Below are positions 587-13,108 of a stretch of DNA of 13,339 nt, one piece after another. The translations under genes were made by a program, and so were the position numbers. The number at the start of each line of letters is the position of its first letter. The stretch's first letter is position 1. The stretch lies in IMG/VR virus record IMGVR_UViG_2711768040_000006; one strand, 5' to 3'. This stretch comes from a virus. Its lineage: Duplodnaviria; Heunggongvirae; Uroviricota; Caudoviricetes. The notes beneath the pieces were generated by a model that saw nothing but the letters and a program-made list of their open reading frames with translations, had not been told where the DNA came from and made no database searches.

Positions 587-1756
587 ATGTCTTTGAAAAA
601 GTTATTACAAGATTGTGTTACGCGCGGTCAAGAAATGACCCAAGCAATTGCTATAGCTCAATTCGGTGATGATAGTCCTGAAGCTCGGCGTATCACGCGT
701 AGATGGGGGATAACTGAAGTAGCAGATTTAATTGGTGTAACTCCTCAAGCAATAAGAGATGCTGAGAAGAACGGGCGTTTACCTGCACCTGACTTTGAAA
801 TGAGAGGAAGAGTTGAACGTCGTGCCGGTTATACCATAGATCAAATCAATAGTATGCGAGCTGTTTTTGGCAACCCAAACCAACGGCCACAAGATAAAAA
901 CCCAGTTGTGCTTGCTGTTATGTCACACAAAGGCGGAGTTTATAAAACATCGTCTGCAGTACATCAGGCACAATGGCTAGCATTACAAGGTCATCGTGTT
1001 CTTTTAGTTGAAGGTAACGATCCTCAGGGAACAGCCTCCATGTATCACGGTTATGTACCTGATTTACATATACATGCCGAGGATACTTTACTGCCATTTT
1101 ACTTGGGCGAACGCGATAACGCTGAATATGCTATAAAACCAACATGCTGGCCTGGACTGGACATTATTCCTAGCTGCCTAGCTTTACACCGTATAGAAAC
1201 AGATCTCATGCAATATCATGCTCAGGGTAAATTGCCTCACCCTCCTCACCTGATGCTACGCGCAGCTATAGAATCAGTTTGGGATAACTACGATGTTATC
1301 GTTATAGATAGTGCTCCAAACCTCGGTACAGGAACCATTAACGTTGTTTGCGCAGCTGACGTTATCGTTGTTGCTACCCCTGCAGAATTATTTGATTACG
1401 CCTCTGTTCTACAGTTTTTCACAATGCTTCTCGATCTCCTAGAAAGCGTTGACCTAGGCGGATTTGAGCCGACCGTTCGCTTGCTTCTGACTAAATATAG
1501 TCTCACTACAGGAAATCAATCACGATGGATGGAAGAGCAAATAAGAAATACATGGGGATCAATGGTATTACGTCAGGTTGTACGCGTTACCGATGAAGTA
1601 GGTAAAGGTCAGATAAAAATGCGAACAGTATTTGAACAAGCGGCAAACCAGCGTTCAACACTTAATGCATGGAGAAATGCCGTCTCTATATGGGACCCTG
1701 TTTGTCGAGAAATTTTTGATGATCTAATAAAACCTCGCTGGGAGAACGAAGAATGA
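587..1756 (+). CDS. sopA: Partition ATPase SopA (ParA, type Ia, with N-terminal HTH extension)
   Basis: 389-aa ORF with deviant Walker A KGGVYKTS; extensive similarity to F-plasmid SopA as I recall it (AIAIAQF..DDSPEAR..ITRRW, VLLVEGNDPQGTASMYHG, KPTCWPGLDIIPSCLALHRIE). ATG at 587 with upstream GGAG. Confidence 0.93.
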   Translation: MSLKKLLQDCVTRGQEMTQAIAIAQFGDDSPEARRITRRWGITEVADLIGVTPQAIRDAEKNGRLPAPDFEMRGRVERRAGYTIDQINSMRAVFGNPNQRPQDKNPVVLAVMSHKGGVYKTSSAVHQAQWLALQGHRVLLVEGNDPQGTASMYHGYVPDLHIHAEDTLLPFYLGERDNAEYAIKPTCWPGLDIIPSCLALHRIETDLMQYHAQGKLPHPPHLMLRAAIESVWDNYDVIVIDSAPNLGTGTINVVCAADVIVVATPAELFDYASVLQFFTMLLDLLESVDLGGFEPTVRLLLTKYSLTTGNQSRWMEEQIRNTWGSMVLRQVVRVTDEVGKGQIKMRTVFEQAANQRSTLNAWRNAVSIWDPVCREIFDDLIKPRWENEE

Positions 1757-2742
1757 AACAACGCTCTCTTCTAAAAAATGCTCCGGATATTAATCGCATT
1801 ATGAGTAATAATCATCATGCACCTGAACATCAGCCGGTATCACCTATGGTTGGTGATTTAAAACGTCAACTGAGTTCATTAACCGGTAATAGCATAACTT
1901 TGCCAGTATGCGGACGTAATGTTAACTTTAAGTTAGAGACGATCCCCGCAGATAAAGTAGAAATGGCAACAATGGTATGGCTAGGTAATGAGCGTGATCA
2001 AGATTTATTAAATGAATCTTCTCTAGCTGATTTAATTCCATCTTTTCTAACTTCTGGGCAACAAAATCCGGCTTTCGCAAGAAAAGTGTCAGGTATTGTT
2101 GAAGTAGCTGATGGTTCTCGAAGACGTAAAGCAGCCATTATAACTGGATGCGATTATCGTGTTCTTATTGGCGATTTAGATGATGAACAAATGCAATGGT
2201 TATCGCAGATAGGCAACGACTATAGACCTATCAGCGCCTATGAAAGGGGGAAAAGATACCTGCGAAGGCTCCATGAATTTGACGGTAACGTAAAATCTTT
2301 AGCTGAAGCCGAAGGCGTGGATAGAAATATTATCAGCCGATGTATTAATACAGCCGGTTTACCTAAAGATATATTGGCAATATTTAACCATCCTGGTGAG
2401 TTATCAGCCAGAGCAGGAGACGCTCTTTTTAAAGCATATCAGGGACAGGAAGCAGCCATGAAAAATGCTGCATCTCAGTTGCTGAGGATGAAAAAATCAG
2501 GTGAAAGTTTAGATGCGCAAAGAATAATACAGGCTCTTCATGATTTCATTATTGTTGAGAAAAACAATTCACATGGAGAGAAAAGGGAAAAGAAATATGG
2601 AGACGGTGTTGTGGCGAAATATGGGAAAAATTTCACAACATTAAAATTAGATAACAGAAAAATACCATCGCACCTAATGAGTAAAATTGAATCTATTCTT
2701 GAGGAGGCGTTTGGAAATTCTTCCGATGTAAAAAATAACTAA
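1753..2742 (+). CDS. sopB: Partition centromere-binding protein SopB (ParB family)
   Basis: 329-aa ORF whose ATG overlaps the sopA stop (ATGA, translational coupling). SopB/ParB-like motifs: ITLPVCGR, WLGNERDQ, LIPSFLTSGQQNPAF, ADGSRRRKAA, HPGELSARAGDAL. Confidence 0.9.
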   Translation: MKQRSLLKNAPDINRIMSNNHHAPEHQPVSPMVGDLKRQLSSLTGNSITLPVCGRNVNFKLETIPADKVEMATMVWLGNERDQDLLNESSLADLIPSFLTSGQQNPAFARKVSGIVEVADGSRRRKAAIITGCDYRVLIGDLDDEQMQWLSQIGNDYRPISAYERGKRYLRRLHEFDGNVKSLAEAEGVDRNIISRCINTAGLPKDILAIFNHPGELSARAGDALFKAYQGQEAAMKNAASQLLRMKKSGESLDAQRIIQALHDFIIVEKNNSHGEKREKKYGDGVVAKYGKNFTTLKLDNRKIPSHLMSKIESILEEAFGNSSDVKNN

Positions 2743-2796: not shown

Positions 2797-3093
2797 AAAA
2801 AATATAAATACAAGTAAACACGCCACCACCGGCACAGCAAAATCCATCAGGCTTGCTACATCCCACGCACGCGGATCAAAACCGCCCCACCACGGCATAT
2901 TCATTCGCTTGCCATGCCCGAACATTTCAATCCAGCGATATTCTGCCTGGGTATGTTCACGCGCAATGAAGAACGTACAACCGGCTATCGCCCCGTAAGC
3001 CCAGTTTCCGGTAAAAAGACCAACCAGTACCTGCGCAGCCACAGCACAAAGTGCATGAAGGAAAGGTGTTATATCCATTTTCATCCTACCCAA
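2791..3093 (-). CDS. Hypothetical small membrane protein (two predicted hydrophobic helices)
   Basis: 100-aa ORF with two long hydrophobic stretches (FLHALCAVAAQVLVGLFTGNWAYGAIAGCTFFIA and ASLMDFAVPVVACLLVFIFFE). The track start is TTG; an internal ATG (about 3075) preceded by AGGA is the more likely start. No family recognised. Confidence 0.45.
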   Translation of the reverse strand: MGRMKMDITPFLHALCAVAAQVLVGLFTGNWAYGAIAGCTFFIAREHTQAEYRWIEMFGHGKRMNMPWWGGFDPRAWDVASLMDFAVPVVACLLVFIFFE

Positions 3094-3120
3094 TAAAACG
3101 GGGCGCTCGGCCCCTTAATA
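3094..3120 (-). terminator. Putative rho-independent terminator downstream of the S74 fibre gene
   Basis: On the - strand, GGGGCCGAGCGCCCC hairpin followed by GTTTTATT, immediately after the stop at 3121. Confidence 0.4.
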
Positions 3121-4160
3121 TTATTTAGACGCAAGCGTCGCCTCAATTGCAGATAATCTTTGTTTTAATTCTGCATTTTCTTCTTCCAGTGCTGTTATTC
3201 TGTCGTCTGACTCTCTGGCTACCTGAACAAGCAAGCCAGTAACACCAGAATAATCTACTGTGTAATAACGTTCACCTTCTTCACCTTCCGATCCGCTTGC
3301 ACCGTCCTGATATTTCATTGCGGAACCTACAGCTTCTGGGATTGCTTCCAGAGCTTCCTGTGCAATGACACCAGCATAGGGCATACCGTTTTCTTTAAGC
3401 GTGTATGTATAGCCGTTCATTTTACGGATGCGGTCGGTTGCATTATCGATCACCTGAATGTTGTCTTTCAGATCCCGGTCGGAATGCTGGTTAAATGCGG
3501 TGGCATGACATGCACCATTAACGCTTAACATATAGGTGTTATCGGTATTTTTCTGCGCATAGAACATATAAGCGCCACCATCAACACCGACTTCATAAAC
3601 AACAGGACGGCTGGAGTGCCCCACAATTGAGCAGTAACACCAGCATAAGCGGTTCCCTGTGTGTTTAATGTCATGGTTGACCCATGATTGGCATATTTGA
3701 TCTGTAATGTGTCGGTGTAATCAAATTTAATAAGCGCGTTACTTCCACGCTTGCTGTATGACATAAGGCAGTTACCCATTTTGAGGTATCCGCTGTCACC
3801 GGGAAAAATCATCGTACCGCCATAAAGGTTGGTAAAGTCCCAGCAAATGTTTGTCCCGTTATCGTTCAGGTTAAGGCGCGCCATTGCGTTACCTGGACTG
3901 TCTATCCATTTTTTGAGGTATAGTTCGCAATACGCATCCTCAACACCTGCCGTCCTGTGAGTTGAGCGGAGTTTTCTCCCAAATATAGCTCCGCTAGTTG
4001 GCAATACCTGCTGATACCATGAAGCAGACCAGTCACCAACGATTTCATCTTTGCTGTCTACATATAATTTTGTTGCGTAGCTTCCTTGATCGTTTTTTAA
4101 TTTGCTAACGTCGGATTTTAGCGTTTTGATGTCATCAGGAATTACTGTCGATGTAGCCAT
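3121..4160 (-). pseudogene. Tail-fibre protein with C-terminal intramolecular chaperone (peptidase S74) domain, interrupted by a 1-nt frameshift
   Basis: Two overlapping - strand ORFs in different frames (3525..4160 and 3121..3624). The downstream one carries the S74 auto-chaperone signature HSDRDLKDNIQ..NGYTYTLKENGMPYAGVIAQEALEAIPEAV and a coiled C-terminus. Adding one G to the short G run near 3619-3622 would fuse them as ...TAQLWG-HSSRPVVYEV... (about 346 aa). Confidence 0.65.
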
Positions 4161-4451: not shown

Positions 4452-4532
4452 TAGATTGACTCCCCCACCTGAGCATCAGTCAATGCCTTGTGCCATATTC
4501 TGAAATTCCTGATATGACCAAATAAATGACGT

Positions 4533-4537
4533 GACCC
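4533..4537. repeat. Target-site duplication GACCC (IS2, right flank copy)
   Basis: 5-bp direct repeat immediately outside the IS2 terminus; a 5-bp duplication is characteristic of IS2. Confidence 0.6.
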
Positions 4538-4548
4538 TGGATTTGCCC

Positions 4549-5454
4549 CTATATTTCCAGACACCTGTTATCACTTAACCCATTACTGGCCTGCTGCCGC
4601 AGATATTCCCGTGGCGAGCGATAACCCAGTGCACTATGCGGATGCCATTCGTTATAATGCTCGAACGCCTCTGCAAGGTTCTTTGCTGCCGTTAACCCGT
4701 CTGGTTTAGGCATGATACTGATGTAGTCACGCTTTATCGTTTTCACGAAGCTCTCTGCTATGCCGTTACTCTCCGGACTCCGCACCGCCGTGTTCTTCGG
4801 TTCAAGCCCCAACATCCGGGCAAACTGCCGTGTTTCATTAGCCCGGTAGCATGAACCATTATCCGTCAGCCACTCTACTGGAGACGCCGGAAGCTCGTTG
4901 CCGAAGCGGCGTTCCACCGCTCCCAGCATGACGTCCTGTACTGTTTCACTGTCGAAGCCGCCCGTAGTGACTGCCCAGTGCAGTGCCTCACGGTCACAGC
5001 AGTCCAGCGCGAACGTGACTCGCAGTTTTTCTCCGTTATCACAGCGGAACTCGAACCCGTCAGAGCACCATCGTTGATTGCTTTCTTTCACGGCCACTTT
5101 GCCAGTATGTGCCCGTTTCGATGGCGGTACAGCGGTTTTTCGCTCAAGCAACAGCGCATTCTGGCGCATGATCCGGTAAACACGTTTGGCATTGATCGCA
5201 GGCATACCATCAAGTTCGGCCTGTCTGCGAAGCAGCGCCCATACCCGACGATAACCATACGTGGGCAGCTCTCCGATAACATGGTGTATACGGAGAAGCA
5301 CATCCGTATCATCTGAGTGACGGCTGCGGCGACCATCTTTCCAGTCATCGGTTCGTCTGAGAATTACGTGCAACTGCGCACGCGACACCCGGAGACAACG
5401 GCTGACTAAGCTTACTCCCCATCCCCGGGCAATAAGGGCGCGTGCGCTATCCAC
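4549..5454 (-). CDS. insD: IS2 transposase OrfB (InsD, DDE integrase-like catalytic domain)
   Basis: 301-aa ORF matching IS2 InsD as I recall it ([28 protein letters not shown]...). Naturally expressed as an OrfAB fusion by -1 frameshifting. Confidence 0.9.
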
Positions 5455-5777
5455 TTTTTTGCACGCCCGTATTCAACGGCTTCTTTAAGGAGTTCATTTT
5501 CCATCGTTTTTTTGCCGAGCAGGCGCTGGAGTTCTTTAATCTGCTTCATGGCAGCAGCAAGTTCAGAGGCAGGAACGACCTGCTCTCCTGCGGCCACAGC
5601 AGTAAGACTTCCCTCCTGGTATTGCTTGCGCCAGAGAAATAACTGGCTGGCTGCCACACCGTGTTGCCGGGCAACAAGGGAGACCGTCATTCCCGGTTCA
5701 AAACTCTGCTGAACAATAGCGATCTTTTCCTGTGTAGTACGCCGTCTGCGTTTCTCCGGTCCTAAGACATCAATCAT
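5412..5777 (-). CDS. insC: IS2 OrfA (InsC, HTH DNA-binding protein)
   Basis: The track ORF 5412..5822 begins at an upstream alternative start. The canonical InsC begins at the internal ATG giving [24 protein letters not shown]... (121 aa). Confidence 0.85.
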
Positions 5778-5852
5778 CTGCTCTCCAATGACTAGTCTAA
5801 AAACTAGTATTAAGACTATCACTTATTTAAGTGATATTGGTTGTCTGGAGAT

Positions 5853-8165
5853 TCAGGGGGCCAGTCTAGACCCTGCTGTAGTCTGGCCTCCAATACGGAT
5901 GGTTGCAGAGTTCTGAATATAGGACCACGTAGTCTTTTTTTCGCTGGATATGCGCCCGTTACTTACTGAGCACGTAGACTGATCTGATTTTACACGCATC
6001 CCCATAACCATTTTTTCAAGCGATGCGTTTTCGTTTACCCGTCTGTTAGCTCCTCCAATATCGCAATAAGGAAATCCGTCTGGCCCATCTGCCGCGGATC
6101 CGAACCCAAGAATAATAGCCGCTCCGGTTTGATGACCGCCGGTATCAAAAACACGCGGCGCTGCATTTGGCGTTTTATACCAGTTCTTATGTACCTCACA
6201 AAGAACCGTAAAAGGAAGATTATAAAGATTATTCTTAATGGGAACTGTAACTATATCGCTTGCGCGGGTCGCCGCCGTCGTTCCTGATATAATAAAAGAT
6301 GATACACAAGGCCCATTTTCTACTTGTGGGGTGGCCAGATAAATATAGTCACCAGATACGGTTGCCCCGCCCTGCTTAGGAGAATACTGTATCTGAGAAC
6401 CTATTTTTAACTCCCCATCAATTGCCTGAATTGTTGCCTCTGCAAAAATCCATCCGGTAGCTTCGTCCTTTCTGACTCTCGCTGTAATCCTTGAGGCAGC
6501 ACCGCCTGTCATATTAATTTCAAGCGTTTGTGTATCAATATACGCATCACCAAGAAAAGTTGTTGCGCTACCGTCATATTTATCAAACCGGATACGCAAC
6601 CTTACCTGCAGTTCTGTTTTAAAACGACATGAGGTTGTCACGTATTTATTATAGCCTGAGACATCAACTGACTTTGTTGCAGCAATTGATGCCATATTAA
6701 TGGCTGAGGTTTGCCCAATCAGAGAATCGTTACAGACGAACTTTCCATAGGTAAAACCAAAACTATCCTTCCCGGTTTCGGGAACATCCATATTTGACGA
6801 TCGCCCCCAACTGGCAGGGTTTTCCGAATTGAGCATGTAGTTTGTTCTTTGCCCCTCAATAAGCAGGCCATCACGTTCAAATCGTGGCTCGTCAATGGCA
6901 GCCTCTGTCAGCACACCAGATTTGTTAATATAGGTTGCTTTCGATGCACGTTTAAACTTAACAATCTTGTCGCCAGGCATCGTTATTTCATCGTCACCAA
7001 TAACAATTTTTTTATATGACGGCGAAAAGCCCGTAATCATATCCAGCGAATCGTTAAATGGTATCCACACATCAGGCAGCGGCTGTAAGACATATTTATA
7101 CGGCTCCGCAGCCTGGCTTGCGTACTCTCTGGCTGCATCTTCGCTTGCTTTAGCTGCCGTCTGGCTTGCTGCCGATGCTTTCGCTGAGTTCGCAGCCGCT
7201 GTTTCGCTCACCTTTGCGTTGGTTTCACTGGTTTTTGCTGCTTTTTGACTGTTAGCTGATGCAGTGGCAGAAGCAGCCGCCGCGCTTGCAGAACTGGCTG
7301 CGGCACTCTCGCTTTGAGCCGCTGCATCCTGACTGCTTTTCGCCGCAGTTTCACTGGCTTTGGCATTCGTTTCGCTGGTCTTCGCTGCCGTCTGGCTGGA
7401 CTTTGCGTTAGTTTCACTCGTCTTCGCAGCTTTCTGGCTGTTAGCCGCAGCAGTTGCTGATCCAGCTGCTGAAGTCGCAGAACCGGCTGCCGCGCTCTCG
7501 CTTTGGGCTGCTGCAACCTGGCTGTTTTTTGCCGCAGTTTCACTGGCTTTAGCATTCGTTTCGCTGGTTTTCGCTGCCGTCTGGCTGGACTTTGCGTTGG
7601 TTTCGCTCGTCTTTGCGGCTGTCTCACTGTTTTTCGCGTTGGTTTCTGATTTTTTGGCTGCTGTCGCGGAGTTTGCCGATGCAGTCTGTGAGGCCGCTGC
7701 TGCCTGTGCGCTGTTAGCTGCATTCGTTTCTGAGGTTTTCGCCGCGTTCTTCGATGATGCCGCTGCGGTTTCGGATTTCTTTGCCGCCGCTGCGCTCTGA
7801 GAGGCGGCTTCGGCGTTGCGTGCCGCTTCTTCCACCATTTCCTCAAAACGACGCAATGCCTCCGGCATGACATCATCTTCCGTCATGGCACCGAGAAAAT
7901 CATTCAGCGTACCTGGTCTGGAACCTTCATAGACGGTAATGGTTCCGGCATGTGAAGGCGGAAAACCTTCAACAAGCAGGATAACGCTGTACTGGCCATA
8001 CTCAACATCCATGCTGTAACGCCCGGCTTCATCCGGATTTTCAGAGGCCACCGTGTTCACCAGTACCGTGGTGCTGTTACGCTTTGCCTTCAGTTGAATA
8101 GTGCAGTTCTGTATTGGTTTTCCCGCACCATCTTTCAGCACACCTGAGATTTTTACTGCTGCCAT
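5853..8165 (-). CDS. stf: Side tail fibre protein Stf (lambda Stf-like N-terminal domain, long Ala/Ser/Thr/Lys repeat shaft, distinct C-terminal domain); 3' end replaced by IS2 sequence
   Basis: N-terminus MAVKISGVLKDG.GKP.QNCTIQLKA.RNSTTV.VNTV.SENPDEAGRYSMDVEYGQYSVIL matches lambda Stf as I recall it. ATG at 8165 with GGAG 5 nt upstream (track ORF starts at GTG 8171). The reading frame runs into IS2 and stops at 5853 inside the element (...TTAGSRLAP*), so the native last ~26 codons are lost. Confidence 0.85.
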   Translation of the reverse strand: MAAVKISGVLKDGAGKPIQNCTIQLKAKRNSTTVLVNTVASENPDEAGRYSMDVEYGQYSVILLVEGFPPSHAGTITVYEGSRPGTLNDFLGAMTEDDVMPEALRRFEEMVEEAARNAEAASQSAAAAKKSETAAASSKNAAKTSETNAANSAQAAAASQTASANSATAAKKSETNAKNSETAAKTSETNAKSSQTAAKTSETNAKASETAAKNSQVAAAQSESAAAGSATSAAGSATAAANSQKAAKTSETNAKSSQTAAKTSETNAKASETAAKSSQDAAAQSESAAASSASAAAASATASANSQKAAKTSETNAKVSETAAANSAKASAASQTAAKASEDAAREYASQAAEPYKYVLQPLPDVWIPFNDSLDMITGFSPSYKKIVIGDDEITMPGDKIVKFKRASKATYINKSGVLTEAAIDEPRFERDGLLIEGQRTNYMLNSENPASWGRSSNMDVPETGKDSFGFTYGKFVCNDSLIGQTSAINMASIAATKSVDVSGYNKYVTTSCRFKTELQVRLRIRFDKYDGSATTFLGDAYIDTQTLEINMTGGAASRITARVRKDEATGWIFAEATIQAIDGELKIGSQIQYSPKQGGATVSGDYIYLATPQVENGPCVSSFIISGTTAATRASDIVTVPIKNNLYNLPFTVLCEVHKNWYKTPNAAPRVFDTGGHQTGAAIILGFGSAADGPDGFPYCDIGGANRRVNENASLEKMVMGMRVKSDQSTCSVSNGRISSEKKTTWSYIQNSATIRIGGQTTAGSRLAP
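5869..5873. repeat. Target-site duplication GACCC (IS2, left flank copy)
   Basis: Second copy of the 5-bp direct repeat flanking IS2; coordinates +/-1. Confidence 0.6.
7140..7800 (-). repeat. Intragenic tandem repeats in the stf shaft region (about 180-bp units; protein repeats of the AAKTSETNAKxSxTAAK type)
   Basis: Near-identical DNA segments recur (e.g. about 7330-7470 vs 7510-7650). The translation shows two ~60-aa near-duplicate blocks plus many shorter SETNAK iterations. Confidence 0.7.
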
Positions 8166-8176
8166 ATCCACTCCAC

Positions 8177-8229: not shown

Positions 8230-8829
8230 TCAGAATTTATAACCGACACCCACGATGAAACCGTCAGTGCGCCAGTCACCACTGCCGGAGCCTTCATAAG
8301 CAATATCAATGGCCACGGATTCGGTCGGGTTAAACTGCACGCCAGCTCCCCACGCCAGAGACGTGTTGCTGTGGCGATCATCATCACTTCCGGTCAGCAC
8401 ATCGTGCGTTTTCCCCTTGTTGTCAGTTACGCGGAGATAATCCCCGGAGAACGTCGACACCCGGCTGTAAGCCACACCTGCCATCGCATAAGCACTGAAC
8501 CATTCATTCACGCGTACAGATGGCCCCGCCATCATGCTGAACCAGCGGTTACGCACGGAATCTTCATGCCAGCGGGTATCGCTGTAATGCGTTTTTTGCT
8601 CATCTTTGGCATTGGCATAACTGAATGACGTCACCAGCCCCAGCGTGTCCGTAAATTCATAACGGTATTTCACGTTAATGCCCTTCAGGTCATCACTGCC
8701 TGGCATATCAGTATGGGTCTGAAGATACCCGGCGCTTAGTGTGGACTGATGCTCTGCTGCGCTCGCTGGCGTACCAGCGGCAACCAGCCAGACTACTGCG
8801 GACAGAATAACAGCACATAATTTACGCAT
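8230..8829 (-). CDS. lom: Lom outer-membrane protein (Ail/Lom/PagC beta-barrel family)
   Basis: 199-aa ORF with signal peptide (MRKLCAVILSAVVWLVAAGTPASA) and a C-terminal ...GVGYKF aromatic beta-barrel terminus. Position between J and stf is as in lambda. Confidence 0.9.
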   Translation of the reverse strand: MRKLCAVILSAVVWLVAAGTPASAAEHQSTLSAGYLQTHTDMPGSDDLKGINVKYRYEFTDTLGLVTSFSYANAKDEQKTHYSDTRWHEDSVRNRWFSMMAGPSVRVNEWFSAYAMAGVAYSRVSTFSGDYLRVTDNKGKTHDVLTGSDDDRHSNTSLAWGAGVQFNPTESVAIDIAYEGSGSGDWRTDGFIVGVGYKF

Positions 8830-8896: not shown

Positions 8897-11800
8897 TCAG
8901 CTGATACTGATGCCTGCGGTGGCTTTCTTCATCACCACAACCAGCAAATCGCTGATACTTGCTGTGGGATACCAGTCATTTACCAGCCATGCTGACACCG
9001 AAAACTCCAGCGTCATGTGACCGTGACCGGCAGGCATATCAATAACGCCACTGTAAATCAGCGTATTATCCAGCGCGGTACGGTTATAAATTTCAGCACC
9101 GTTTTTCCGCACTATCAGACGGCATGAGGAGTAAATATCAGTATGCTCTCTCTCATGTTTAGCGCCGCTGAATGCCACCGCCGGAATAACAATCTGCCGG
9201 TCAAACGGCTGATCGTCATAAACCCTGACGGTAATGGTCCCTGATGGCCACCGTTCCGGTGCACGGGAGTCACGGGGGAAAGCTTTGCCCACTGTTTTAA
9301 CGAGATCGCCTTCAATCTGGTTCGCGGACAGTTTTCCCAGAACCCGGCAGTTCTCGTTAATCGTGACGTTGTTGAGCGTCCCGGAGTTCGCATTCACGTT
9401 ACCGCTGATATCGGCATTTTTTGCCGTCAGCCGCCCGTCCGGTGTCAGGGAAAATGCCGGAGGATTACCGCCGCTGGTAATGGTGGGAGCCGTCAGATAT
9501 TTCAGGAACACTTCATTCATAAATATCTGATCGCCCTGACCAACAAACATCGGCTTTGTGTTGCCATTCGCAGGATTAATCATCGCAATCCTGTCCGCCG
9601 CCAGCAGCACCTGACTCTGCATGCCGTCAGGGGTATTCTCAATACCGGCACCAATACCCGCGATATAAAGGCGTCCGTCCTGCATCTGCTGCAGCTTCAC
9701 AGCCCACATGCTGTTCAGGTTATTATTTGTATCAACCTGAACCTTCTGTATCTGCTGAATTGCCGCACTCTGGTCTTCCAGTTTCTTATTGACGGTCTGC
9801 GTGATTTCATTGCTGACATCCGTAATGGACGTCCTGATTTCAGCCAGGTCAGGCGCAAGCTGACCGTTATCAATCTGCGTCCACAGCTCCTGAGCCAGAT
9901 GGCTTTGCCCTATCTCTCCTTTGAAAAAATCCAGATAGCCGGATGCATCATCACTCGGCTGGCCAACAGCCTCCACAAATGCCGATTTGCCAACGGTGTT
10001 CACACTGCGGATATAAAAGTAATAATCATGGCCCGGTTTGATATTGATACTGGCGGCTATCCAGTACAGCGCCGTGCCAAGATAGCGTGCTGTGGTTTCA
10101 ACCTGCCTGATATCCGCAATCCGCTTTTCCGAGAACCAGAACTCAAACTGTACCGTCGGATCATAAACCGCAAGATACGGCGTGGCAGTTATCTGAAAAT
10201 AGCCCGGCGTCAGCTCAATCCGCGACGGCGCTGCCGGTGCGGCAATCCGGAACGATACCGACGCCGGATCGCCCTGCTGCCCCCACGCATTTACTGCCCG
10301 GACTGTCAGCCTGTAGTTCCCCAGCGCCAGTTGCCTGAAGCGGTATGTGGTTTCCGTCGTCCTGGCCGTGCTGACCAGCCGCTCACTGCCGTCGTCCGCT
10401 GCCACGGTCAGACGGAGCAGGAAGCTCACGCCCTTCACCACCTTCGGCGTGTCCCAGCGCGCCAGCACCTGGTATTCCCCGCTGTCTGCGGTGACTTCGG
10501 CGGTCAGGTGCTGCACCGCTGGCGGCGTGACACCATTCACCGTGCCGCTCTGGTCGCCGTCAAAGTGCGCCCCGTTATCCACGATGGCTTCTTTCTCCGG
10601 CACATGCTGCACGGCAGTGATGGCATACGTGCCGTCATCGTTCTCACGGATACTCACACAGCGGAACAGGCGCTGGCGCAGCGTCGGCAGCTTCAGCCCC
10701 CATACGCTGTATTCGGCAACACCGTCAGGAACACGGCTCACTTTTACCTTCACGCCGTCGGTGACGGACTGAACCTCCACGCTGACCGGATTGCCACTTC
10801 CGTCAACCAGGCTTATCAGCGTGGTACCGGAGGATGGCAGCGTGATTTCACGGTCGAGCGTCAGCGTCCGGGTCTGGCTGTTCACCGCCAGCACGCGACC
10901 ACCGATGCTGATACCGGCATAGTCATCATCACAGATTTCAATGACATCGCCCGGTACATGGCGAAGCCCTTCGGCACCCACGCTGAAGTCCACGGTCTGC
11001 GTTTCCAGCAGTTCCGTTTTAATCAGCCACAGCCCGGCGCGGTGCGCCTGCCCCCGGCTGGTACAGCCAAAGGCATCCATCTTCGTAACATTACGACCGT
11101 AACGGGCAATGGCCTGCGTATCTTCAACAAGCTCTGTCGCCGTCTCCCAGCCGTTGTTCGGGTCAATCCAGTTCACCTCAACGGCATTATGGCGGTCCTT
11201 CAGGGCGCTGAAGCTGTAGCGGAACGGCGCGCCATCATCCGGCATCACCACATTACTGCGGTTATAGGTCCACACCTTATCTGATGGTCGGTCCTGCACG
11301 AACGTCAGCGTCTGCCCGTTCCATACCGGCATACAGCGCATCGCCGAGCAGAAATCACTGAGCACATCCCACGCCTTGCGCTGTGTGGTCAGGTACGCAT
11401 TACAGGTGATGCGCGGCTCCATGCCGCCAAAGCCGTCCGGCACTGACTGGTCGCAGTACTGGCCGATGACATACAGCGCCCATTTATCCACATCCGCCGC
11501 ACCAAGACGTTTCCCCATGCCGTAGCGCGGATGGGTCAGCATATCCCACAGACACCAGGCCATGTTGTTGCTGTATGCCGGTTTAAACGTTCCGTCCCAG
11601 ATACCGCTGTATTGCCGCGTCTGCGGGTTATAATTCGACGGCACCTGCAGAATACGCCCGCGCAGATGATAATTACGGCTCACCTGCTGGCTGCCGAACT
11701 GCTCCGAGTCCACCTGCACGCCGACCAGTGCCGTGTTCGGGTAGCACTGTTTCACATCGATGATTTCGGTGTATGACGACCAGAGCGTTTTGTTCTGCAG

Positions 11801-12376
11801 CTGGTCTGTGGTGCTGTCCGGCGTCATCCTGCGCATCCGGATATTAAACGGGCGCGGCGGCAGGTTATCCACCACCACCGAGGCCAGATACTGCGAGGTG
11901 GTTTTGCCTTTAATGGTGATATCTTTTTCCGTCACCCAGCCACCGTTACGCTGTATCTGAACCAGCAGGCGGACTTCCGACGGATTCCGGTCCCCCTTTG
12001 AGGTGGTTTCCACCAGTGCCTGCACACCGAAGGTAAAGCGCAGACGGTCGATGTTTGCAGACGTGATGGTCCGGGTAATCGGCGTGTCGTATTTCACTTC
12101 CGTACCCAGCACCGTCTCGGAACCGGAGGATTCAAATCCCTCCGGCGGTGTCTGCTCCTGCTCACCTGCCCGGAACACCACCGTGACACCGGAGATGTTG
12201 GTATTCCCCTCACTGTCCAGCACCGGTGTACTGTTCAGCAGCACGCTTTTTAATCCATCCACCGGACCTTCTATCGGCCCTTCGCTGATGGCATCGATCA
12301 CACTCAGTAACTGCGTGGATTTCAGGTTGTCCTTCGCTTCGCGCGGGGTATGCCCCTTACTGCTGCCTTTACCCAT
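8897..12376 (-). CDS. J: Tail tip / host-specificity protein J (central tail fibre)
   Basis: 1159-aa ORF. N-terminal about 800 aa are near-identical to lambda J as I recall it ([45 protein letters not shown]...), with fibronectin-like middle repeats. The C-terminal ~350 aa diverge from lambda. Confidence 0.93.
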
Positions 12377-12436: not shown

Positions 12437-13108
12437 TCAGCGACCAATCACCACAACCTGACCACCATCCCCTTCGTCTGCCGTGCTGATCTCCTGAGAG
12501 ATCACCCGCGACCCCACGCGCATTTCACCGTACAGAACGGGCAGAACATTGCCCTGGGCAACCATGTTATCCAGTGAGGAGAAATAGGTGTTCTGTTTGC
12601 CGTTATCTGTACTTGCTGCCGTGGGCGTCCTGGCTTTCGGTGCCAGCATCTGCGCCACACCGCCGAGCACCATACTGGCACCGAGAGAAAACAGAATGCC
12701 GGTCATACCACCGGCCCCAATGGCTGTCCCCCATGCTGCAAGGGTGGCTCCGGCGGTAAAGAATGATCCGGCAATGGCGGCTGCCCCCAGGACAATCTGG
12801 AATACGCCACCTGACTTGGCCCCGGCGACTCTGGGAACGATATGAATCACAGCGCCGTCAGGCAGAGCCTCATGTAACTGCGCCGTTAATCCGGACGTGC
12901 TGACATCCTGCCCGGCAATCCGTACCTGATACCAGCCGTCGCTCAGTTTCTGACGAAACGCCGGGAGCTGTGTGGCCAGCGCCCGAATGGCTTCAGCCCC
13001 CGTTTTCACACGAAGGTCGATGCGGCGGCCAAATCGTTGTAAATCCCCGTAAAGGCAGATGCGCGCCATGCCCGGTGACGCCAGAGGGAGTGTGTGCGTC
13101 GCTGCCAT
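12437..13108 (-). CDS. I: Tail assembly protein I
   Basis: 223-aa ORF matching lambda gpI as I recall it (MAATHTLPLASPGMARICLYGDLQRFGRRIDLRV...); overlaps the 3' end of K. Confidence 0.9.
   Translation of the reverse strand: MAATHTLPLASPGMARICLYGDLQRFGRRIDLRVKTGAEAIRALATQLPAFRQKLSDGWYQVRIAGQDVSTSGLTAQLHEALPDGAVIHIVPRVAGAKSGGVFQIVLGAAAIAGSFFTAGATLAAWGTAIGAGGMTGILFSLGASMVLGGVAQMLAPKARTPTAASTDNGKQNTYFSSLDNMVAQGNVLPVLYGEMRVGSRVISQEISTADEGDGGQVVVIGR

Follow-up and report, generated by a model that had tools for sequence, protein, structure and literature searches.

Mosaic structure of J

The locus considered here raises the question of which outer-membrane receptor is recognized by a lambda-like tail tip whose receptor-binding end diverges from that of lambda. 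The DNA is a stretch of 13,339 nucleotides (nt) from a virus of the Caudoviricetes (IMG/VR record IMGVR_UViG_2711768040_000006), the whole of which is called the window, and it carries gene J, encoding the tip attachment or central tail fibre protein, as an intact open reading frame (ORF) of 3480 nt on the minus strand (window 8897..12376), corresponding to 1159 amino acids (aa). A preliminary description of the window, made from the sequence alone, took about the first 800 residues of J to be lambda-like and about the last 350 to be divergent, and suggested that a receptor other than LamB of lambda is used, with a hint at FhuA. As shown below, the comparison with published systems points to the porin OmpC.

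The gene was assigned from the ORF list, its translation and Pfam. The Pfam matches are FNIII-A_GpJ (aa 86-207), Phage-tail_3 (aa 330-496), Ig_J (aa 610-714), Ig_J_second (aa 716-818), Phage_Tail_Tip (aa 872-1000) and Ig_GpJ_C (PF12421, 'Tip attachment protein J, C-terminal receptor binding domain'; aa 1029-1159, E = 3.3e-37), the last of which is matched over its full length. All six matches are far above the cut-offs, and the complete domain series of lambda gpJ is present. Over its full length, the gene is 96-97.6% identical at the nt level to J of the phages PhiR55_1, vB_EcoS-640R1 and PhiR46_1.

The overall identity to lambda J (NC_001416) is 84% in BLASTP. Region-wise identities were taken from a multiple alignment, where the modules were named according to the cryo-electron microscopy structure paper on lambda gpJ (PMC11101478); all modules lie on the minus strand. 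The body, consisting of the hub domains, FNIII-1 and FNIII-2 (aa 1-805, window 9962..12376), is 98.1% identical to lambda J (790/805), 98.3% to phage 21 and 98.4% to h434, and its nt identity to lambda is 96.7% over gene nt 1-2400, which agrees with the lambda-like body read in the preliminary description. The alpha-helical shaft (aa 806-890, window 9707..9961) is 45.6% identical to lambda, where lambda has a 28-aa gap, so that the shaft is 28 aa longer than that of lambda; its nt identity to lambda is 28-51%, and its aa identity is 95.3% to phage 21 and 91.8% to VT1-Sakai. The central straight fibre (aa 891-1015, window 9332..9706) is 72.8% identical to lambda, 96.0% to phage 21 and 99.2% to VT1-Sakai. 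The Ig-like receptor-binding domain (RBD; aa 1016-1159, window 8900..9331), which contains the Ig_GpJ_C match, is 43.1% identical to lambda, 44.7% to h434, 67.1% to phage 21, 97.9% to VT1-Sakai and 99.3% to PhiR55_1. The C-terminus is thus far from essentially identical to that of lambda J. The divergence of the last 350 residues was correctly noticed in the preliminary description; however, they do not form a single block but three modules that diverge to different degrees, and the RBD proper comprises only the last ~145 aa.

At gene nt ~2430 (aa ~810, window ~9946), the nt identity to lambda drops from 91-96% to 28-62%, and the first mosaic junction was placed at about aa 806-810 (window ~9946-9961). 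The start coordinate of 9950 and the landmark peptide (aa 817-833) proposed for the divergence lie within a few codons of this breakpoint. The nt identity to lambda returns to 90% solely in gene nt 2881-2970 and is then 46-68% up to the stop codon. The corresponding block of aa 961-990 (window 9407..9496, minus strand) is the only distal segment that is still 90% identical to lambda at the nt level, and its position just before the RBD makes it a likely recombination joint. The phage 21, mEp460_4F5, 1H12 and Lambda_ev phage records match the gene at 95-96% nt identity up to nt 3100, where the matches end, and the nt identity to phage 21 falls to 47-64% beyond gene nt ~3060. From the end of the phage 21-type matches at ~nt 3060-3100, a second mosaic junction can therefore be located near aa 1020-1033 (window ~9280-9316). 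The G+C content is 58.6% in the body and 48-54% across the three distal modules, with 48.2% in the shaft, and this drop is consistent with a separate origin of the distal modules.

Hence, J is a mosaic in which a lambda-type hub/FNIII body (aa 1-805) is followed by a shaft and fibre of the phage 21 type (aa 806 to ~1020) and by an RBD of the VT1-Sakai or '1A2' type (aa ~1020-1159). The J of phage 21 (OL657228) is 95-98% identical in its body, long shaft and fibre up to about aa 1020.

A separate observation concerns the straight fibre, in which F952 (window ~9521-9523) is the equivalent of F924 in lambda J. Binding of F924 activates the prophage-encoded anticodon nuclease HepS, which acts in abortive infection, and Gifsy phages have Ile at this position (PMC13043305). 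Since F952 is conserved, a phage carrying this J is predicted to trigger HepS.

Fold of the receptor-binding domain

In a sequence search of the PDB with the C-terminal 361 aa of J, the best match was A8 gpJ713 (9wca/9wcb) with E = 2.9e-128, and the lambda structure 8xcj was matched with E = 4.2e-108. The entry 9wcb is titled 'Open state of A8 gpJ 713 central tail fiber with OmpC G17 from E. coli EDL933', 9wca is the corresponding closed state, and 8xcj is the complex of lambda gpJ713 with LamB. An AlphaFold2 (AF2) monomer model of aa 985-1159 gave an all-beta structure with a predicted local distance difference test (pLDDT) value of 81.8. When this model was used as a Foldseek query, the template modelling scores (TMq) were 0.80 for 8xcj, 0.79 for 9wcb (63% identity), 0.77 for 8xck and 0.75 for 9wca, and the next matches did not exceed 0.43. 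In the AF2 model, the RBD is a beta-sandwich that can be superposed on the solved gpJ RBDs.

These structures include both a LamB and an OmpC complex. The lambda J (PDB 8iyk, 8xck, 8xcj) has the same domain order as the J of the window and the same genomic context of I, J, lom and stf, but its receptor is LamB and its shaft is the shorter one. A8 gpJ713 belongs to the same domain family, has the same fold, binds OmpC and undergoes a closed-to-open transition when the porin is bound; however, its RBD is only 63-64% identical to that of the window and is closer to the phage 21/4A7 allele group (about 81%).

Match to an OmpC-using chimera

In the work of Brödel et al., the part of lambda gpJ from aa 964 onward was exchanged for the C-termini of natural gpJ variants from E. 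coli prophages, which yielded the chimeras A8 and 1A2 (Nature 2024, PMC11338833). The allele in 1A2 is that of the J of VT1-Sakai, which is prophage Sp15 in E. coli O157:H7 Sakai. In the J of the window, the segment equivalent to the graft comprises aa 992-1159 (168 aa; window 8900..9403, minus strand), as determined by alignment to the published 1A2 DNA. This DNA was available as text converted from Portable Document Format (PDF) with small indels, and a frameshift-tolerant protein-to-DNA alignment was therefore used. The last 168 aa of J agree with the graft at 152/159 readable positions, and VT1-Sakai agrees at 155/159. The sequence is thus essentially the same, and OmpC-dependent, LamB-independent function would be expected.

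Three of the differences from 1A2 appear to be real, namely R1076K, D1134N and S1157T, where the 1A2 residues are those of VT1-Sakai. The remaining mismatches are also unlike VT1-Sakai and look like conversion errors. The published 1A2 DNA and the RBD DNA of the window differ at many synonymous sites, and because of these differences and the PDF conversion errors, the search of the supplement of Brödel et al. for exact words of the RBD DNA gave no match. The plaque-forming phage PhiR55_1 carries the same R1076/D1134/S1157 variant, and therefore this exact variant is functional.

The behavior of 1A2 and A8 was taken from the main text, Fig. 1b, as well as Extended Data Fig. 1 and 8 of PMC11338833; the Source Data of Extended Data Fig. 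2 panel C were left out, where the columns for 1A2 and A8 duplicate those of panel B. In MG1655 delta-lamB delta-ompC, 1A2 delivers DNA when any of 20 of the 23 natural ompC variants is supplied, including EDL933 G17 (98%), and fails with the OmpC of MG1655 (K-12; 2%) and with the variants G2 and G40 (PMC11338833). In wild-type MG1655, which is LamB-positive, the delivery by 1A2 is 5.2%, compared to 97.7% for wild-type lambda gpJ, at a multiplicity of infection of 50 (PMC11338833). The behavior of 1A2 was confirmed by a follow-up preprint (bioRxiv 10.1101/2025.02.28.640725).

Receptor of J

From the near-identity to the 1A2 graft, it is likely that the RBD trimer of J binds the trimeric porin OmpC and not LamB, where most natural E. 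coli variants of OmpC would be accepted and that of K-12 probably would not. Both the OmpC use and the LamB independence are carried over from the published experiments with 1A2 and A8, and the three substitutions relative to 1A2 presumably leave the receptor unchanged. The suggestion in the preliminary description that J recognizes a receptor other than LamB is supported by the same comparison.

The alternative that the RBD still uses the maltoporin LamB, and that it has diverged by allelic drift or through arms-race variation while its receptor stayed unchanged, draws on two similarities. The Pfam family and the fold of the RBD are those of the LamB-binding RBD of lambda, and phage 21, which is a native LamB user (PMC11336670), has an RBD that is 63-67% identical to that of the window in addition to its 95-96% identical shaft and fibre. 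However, the RBD does not reach allele-level identity with either of these LamB-dependent J proteins: the identity is 43% to lambda and 63-67% to phage 21, compared to ~98% to the OmpC binder. Furthermore, the nearly identical 1A2 graft delivers poorly into LamB-positive MG1655 but works in a delta-lamB strain with a suitable ompC. LamB is thus very probably unused, and continued use of this receptor is very unlikely.

Several points nevertheless weigh against the assignment to OmpC. The OmpC evidence comes from 1A2 and A8 and not from this exact J sequence, and 9 of the 168 graft positions of 1A2 are unreadable in the error-prone PDF conversion. The 1A2 chimera has the short shaft and the straight fibre of lambda, whereas the J of the window has those of the phage 21 type. 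D1134, which is N in 1A2, aligns with D1107 of lambda, which we take to be a host-range site, and given D1134 the range of OmpC variants accepted by J could differ from that of 1A2. In addition, phage 21 is natively a LamB user, and the single substitution I1025T at the junction of the central straight fibre and the RBD gives it the use of OmpC (PMC11336670). The choice of receptor is labile within this RBD family.

The last points also bear on the possibility that the receptor of the RBD is a different trimeric porin, for example OmpF or one from outside E. coli, or that R1076, D1134 and S1157 change the range of OmpC variants or confer dual specificity. One to four substitutions move lambda and phage 21 between LamB, OmpC and OmpF (PMC11336670), and the chimeras A8 and 1A2 accept different OmpC variants, where the OmpC of K-12 is accepted by A8 and not by 1A2. 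On the other hand, the R/K, D/N and S/T changes are all conservative, both the variant of the window and that of 1A2 are common among natural prophages, and an altered range of OmpC variants would still be OmpC use. This possibility is therefore considered improbable. For the narrower suggestion that the R1076/D1134/S1157 variant, together with the long phage 21-type shaft, gives J a range unlike that of 1A2, including for example the OmpC of K-12, OmpF or a second porin, there would be a small chance.

A receptor assignment for PhiR55_1, which is the closest full-length phage, was looked for in the available literature and none was found; the SNIPE paper gives ManYZ dependence only. Nothing useful came from searching the literature for host specificity protein J together with the receptors of Shiga toxin (Stx) phages.

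Proposed opening mechanism

In lambda, four bottom loops per RBD enter the extracellular face of the LamB trimer, after which the three RBDs splay apart. Newly formed hydrogen bonds make the straight fibre more compact and rotate it, and the helical shaft flips, with part of it becoming beta strands; the strings of FNIII domains come apart, and the tube is unplugged (PMC11101478). The closed and open states named in the titles of the A8 entries indicate that the same switch occurs on OmpC. By analogy with lambda on LamB and A8 on OmpC, this mechanism may carry over to the J of the window, where OmpC would be the trigger. Each of the three RBDs would insert its bottom loops into the extracellular face of OmpC and the RBD trimer would open, after which the straight fibre would twist and the helical shaft would flip, and the tail tube would be unplugged, leading to DNA ejection. 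The 28-aa longer shaft, which is common to phage 21 and VT1-Sakai, presumably only lengthens the fibre.

Distribution of the RBD allele

The RBD is 98-99% identical in dozens of Stx1a- or Stx2a-converting long-tailed phages, PPompW prophages, P-EibA, JLK-2012 and 2G7b. The 420-nt RBD segment was found at >=80% coverage in 3371 of 5426 complete E. coli genomes (62%), with a median of two copies per genome, and 726 records have at least 99% identity to it. A protein search likewise returned clusters that hold thousands of member sequences. The allele is thus already known: it is one of the most frequent in E. coli, its function has been characterized, it has been used as an engineering part, and a structure of a relative with OmpC has been solved. 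Swapping of C-terminal modules among J genes is classical, and the mosaic found here is real yet ordinary and opens no new question. For annotation, the host-range determinant of the window can be described as 'OmpC-type (1A2/VT1-Sakai allele)' and not as 'lambda-like, LamB'.

In the VT1-Sakai record (AP000400, 2954-6426), the J that carries this RBD allele is entered as two truncated coding sequences ('truncated protein by a mutation'). The J of VT1-Sakai is split by this mutation, whereas that of the window is intact. The possibility that the distal region of J is likewise a frameshifted or decayed remnant was rejected, as the ORF is intact and 99% identical to the J of a plaque-forming phage.

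Carrier element and the question of FhuA

The first 258 nt of the window form a perfect palindrome, whose arms (1-129 and 130-258) are 100% complementary and have no spacer between them. Its center, CCATTATACGCGCGTATAATGG, is identical to the N15 telRL core, and its axis lies 457 nt upstream of sopA, compared to 487 nt in N15. The segment has the appearance of a linear plasmid prophage's covalently closed hairpin telomere, in which bases 1-129 would be a read-around copy. The sopA and sopB genes (window 587-2742) adjoin the lambda-type tail operon, and their products are 93% (SopA) and 74% (SopB) identical to gp28 and gp27 of N15, respectively. The same sop/tail arrangement is found in the plasmids p19KM1803_4 and NZ_CP019258, the former of which also has a protelomerase and RepA. 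The element is thus an N15-like phage-plasmid backbone with a non-N15 tail.

As an element of the N15 plasmid-prophage type, it could be expected to carry a tip that binds FhuA, as for N15, phi80 and HK022, and this was the receptor hinted at in the preliminary description. The sopAB genes, the telomere palindrome and the protelomerase on related plasmids are in line with such a reading, but they concern the replicon. The FhuA-dependent tips of N15 (gp21), phi80 and HK022 have only distant hub/FNIII homology to J, with 30-35% identity. N15 gp21 aligns to aa 4-959 only, at 30% identity, and the last 200 aa of J have no detectable similarity to it. For the RBD, the comparison with the tip proteins of HK022 and phi80 gave E > 2, and no match was reported with N15 gp21; instead, the RBD is a porin-binding Ig_GpJ_C domain. 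Furthermore, J is followed by the lambda-type lom and stf in place of the gp22, gp23 and cor of N15/phi80, and no homologue of N15 gp22, gp23 or Cor was found in the whole window (tblastn, E <= 0.01). A FhuA-type tail tip was therefore rejected on both its C-terminal homology and its downstream genes, and binding of FhuA is extremely improbable. N15 and the element of the window have a replicon type in common, whereas their receptor-binding ends have no similarity.

With an N15-like backbone that lacks a FhuA-type tip, the element illustrates that the replicon type is no guide to the receptor of a phage-plasmid. What is mildly new is the carrier alone, an N15-like linear plasmid prophage with a tail of the lambda/21/Sakai type. 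If a tail module of chromosomal prophages is truly present on an N15-like element, whole tail and host-range modules would be exchanged between integrative lambdoid phages and telomere-bearing phage-plasmids.

Neighboring genes and damaged fibre genes

The genes I, J, lom and stf lie on the minus strand in the lambda order. The tail assembly gene I (window 12437-13108; Pfam Lambda_tail_I) is located upstream of J, and lom, which encodes an Ail/Lom outer-membrane protein (window 8230..8829; Pfam Ail_Lom, E = 1.7e-127), is located directly downstream; the order J-lom is common to the window, lambda and PhiR55_1. The side tail fibre gene stf follows (window 5853..8171, 772 aa as read; Pfam phage_tail_N at aa 5-134).

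An IS2-like insertion sequence (IS) of the IS3 family (window ~4530-5875) is inserted at the 3' end of stf, and the stf frame stops just inside it. The element was identified by Pfam, with orfA at 5412-5822 and orfB at 4549-5454, and has terminal inverted repeats near 4553 and 5852. The homology of stf to PhiR55_1 and p19KM1803_4 is restricted to its 5' part and stops near window 7275 in the former case and 6837 in the latter, both of which lie well upstream of the IS. The insertion has probably truncated the side fibres, in which case adsorption would rest on J alone.

No defence genes were found by PADLOC among the small ORFs that lie between stf and sopB. A gene with a tail-fibre domain and a Peptidase_S74 chaperone domain (window 3121-4160) is split into the overlapping ORFs 3525-4160 and 3121-3624 because of a 1-nt deletion when compared with the 346-aa gene of p19KM1803_4, which is intact; the split gene is either a pseudogene or the result of a sequencing error.

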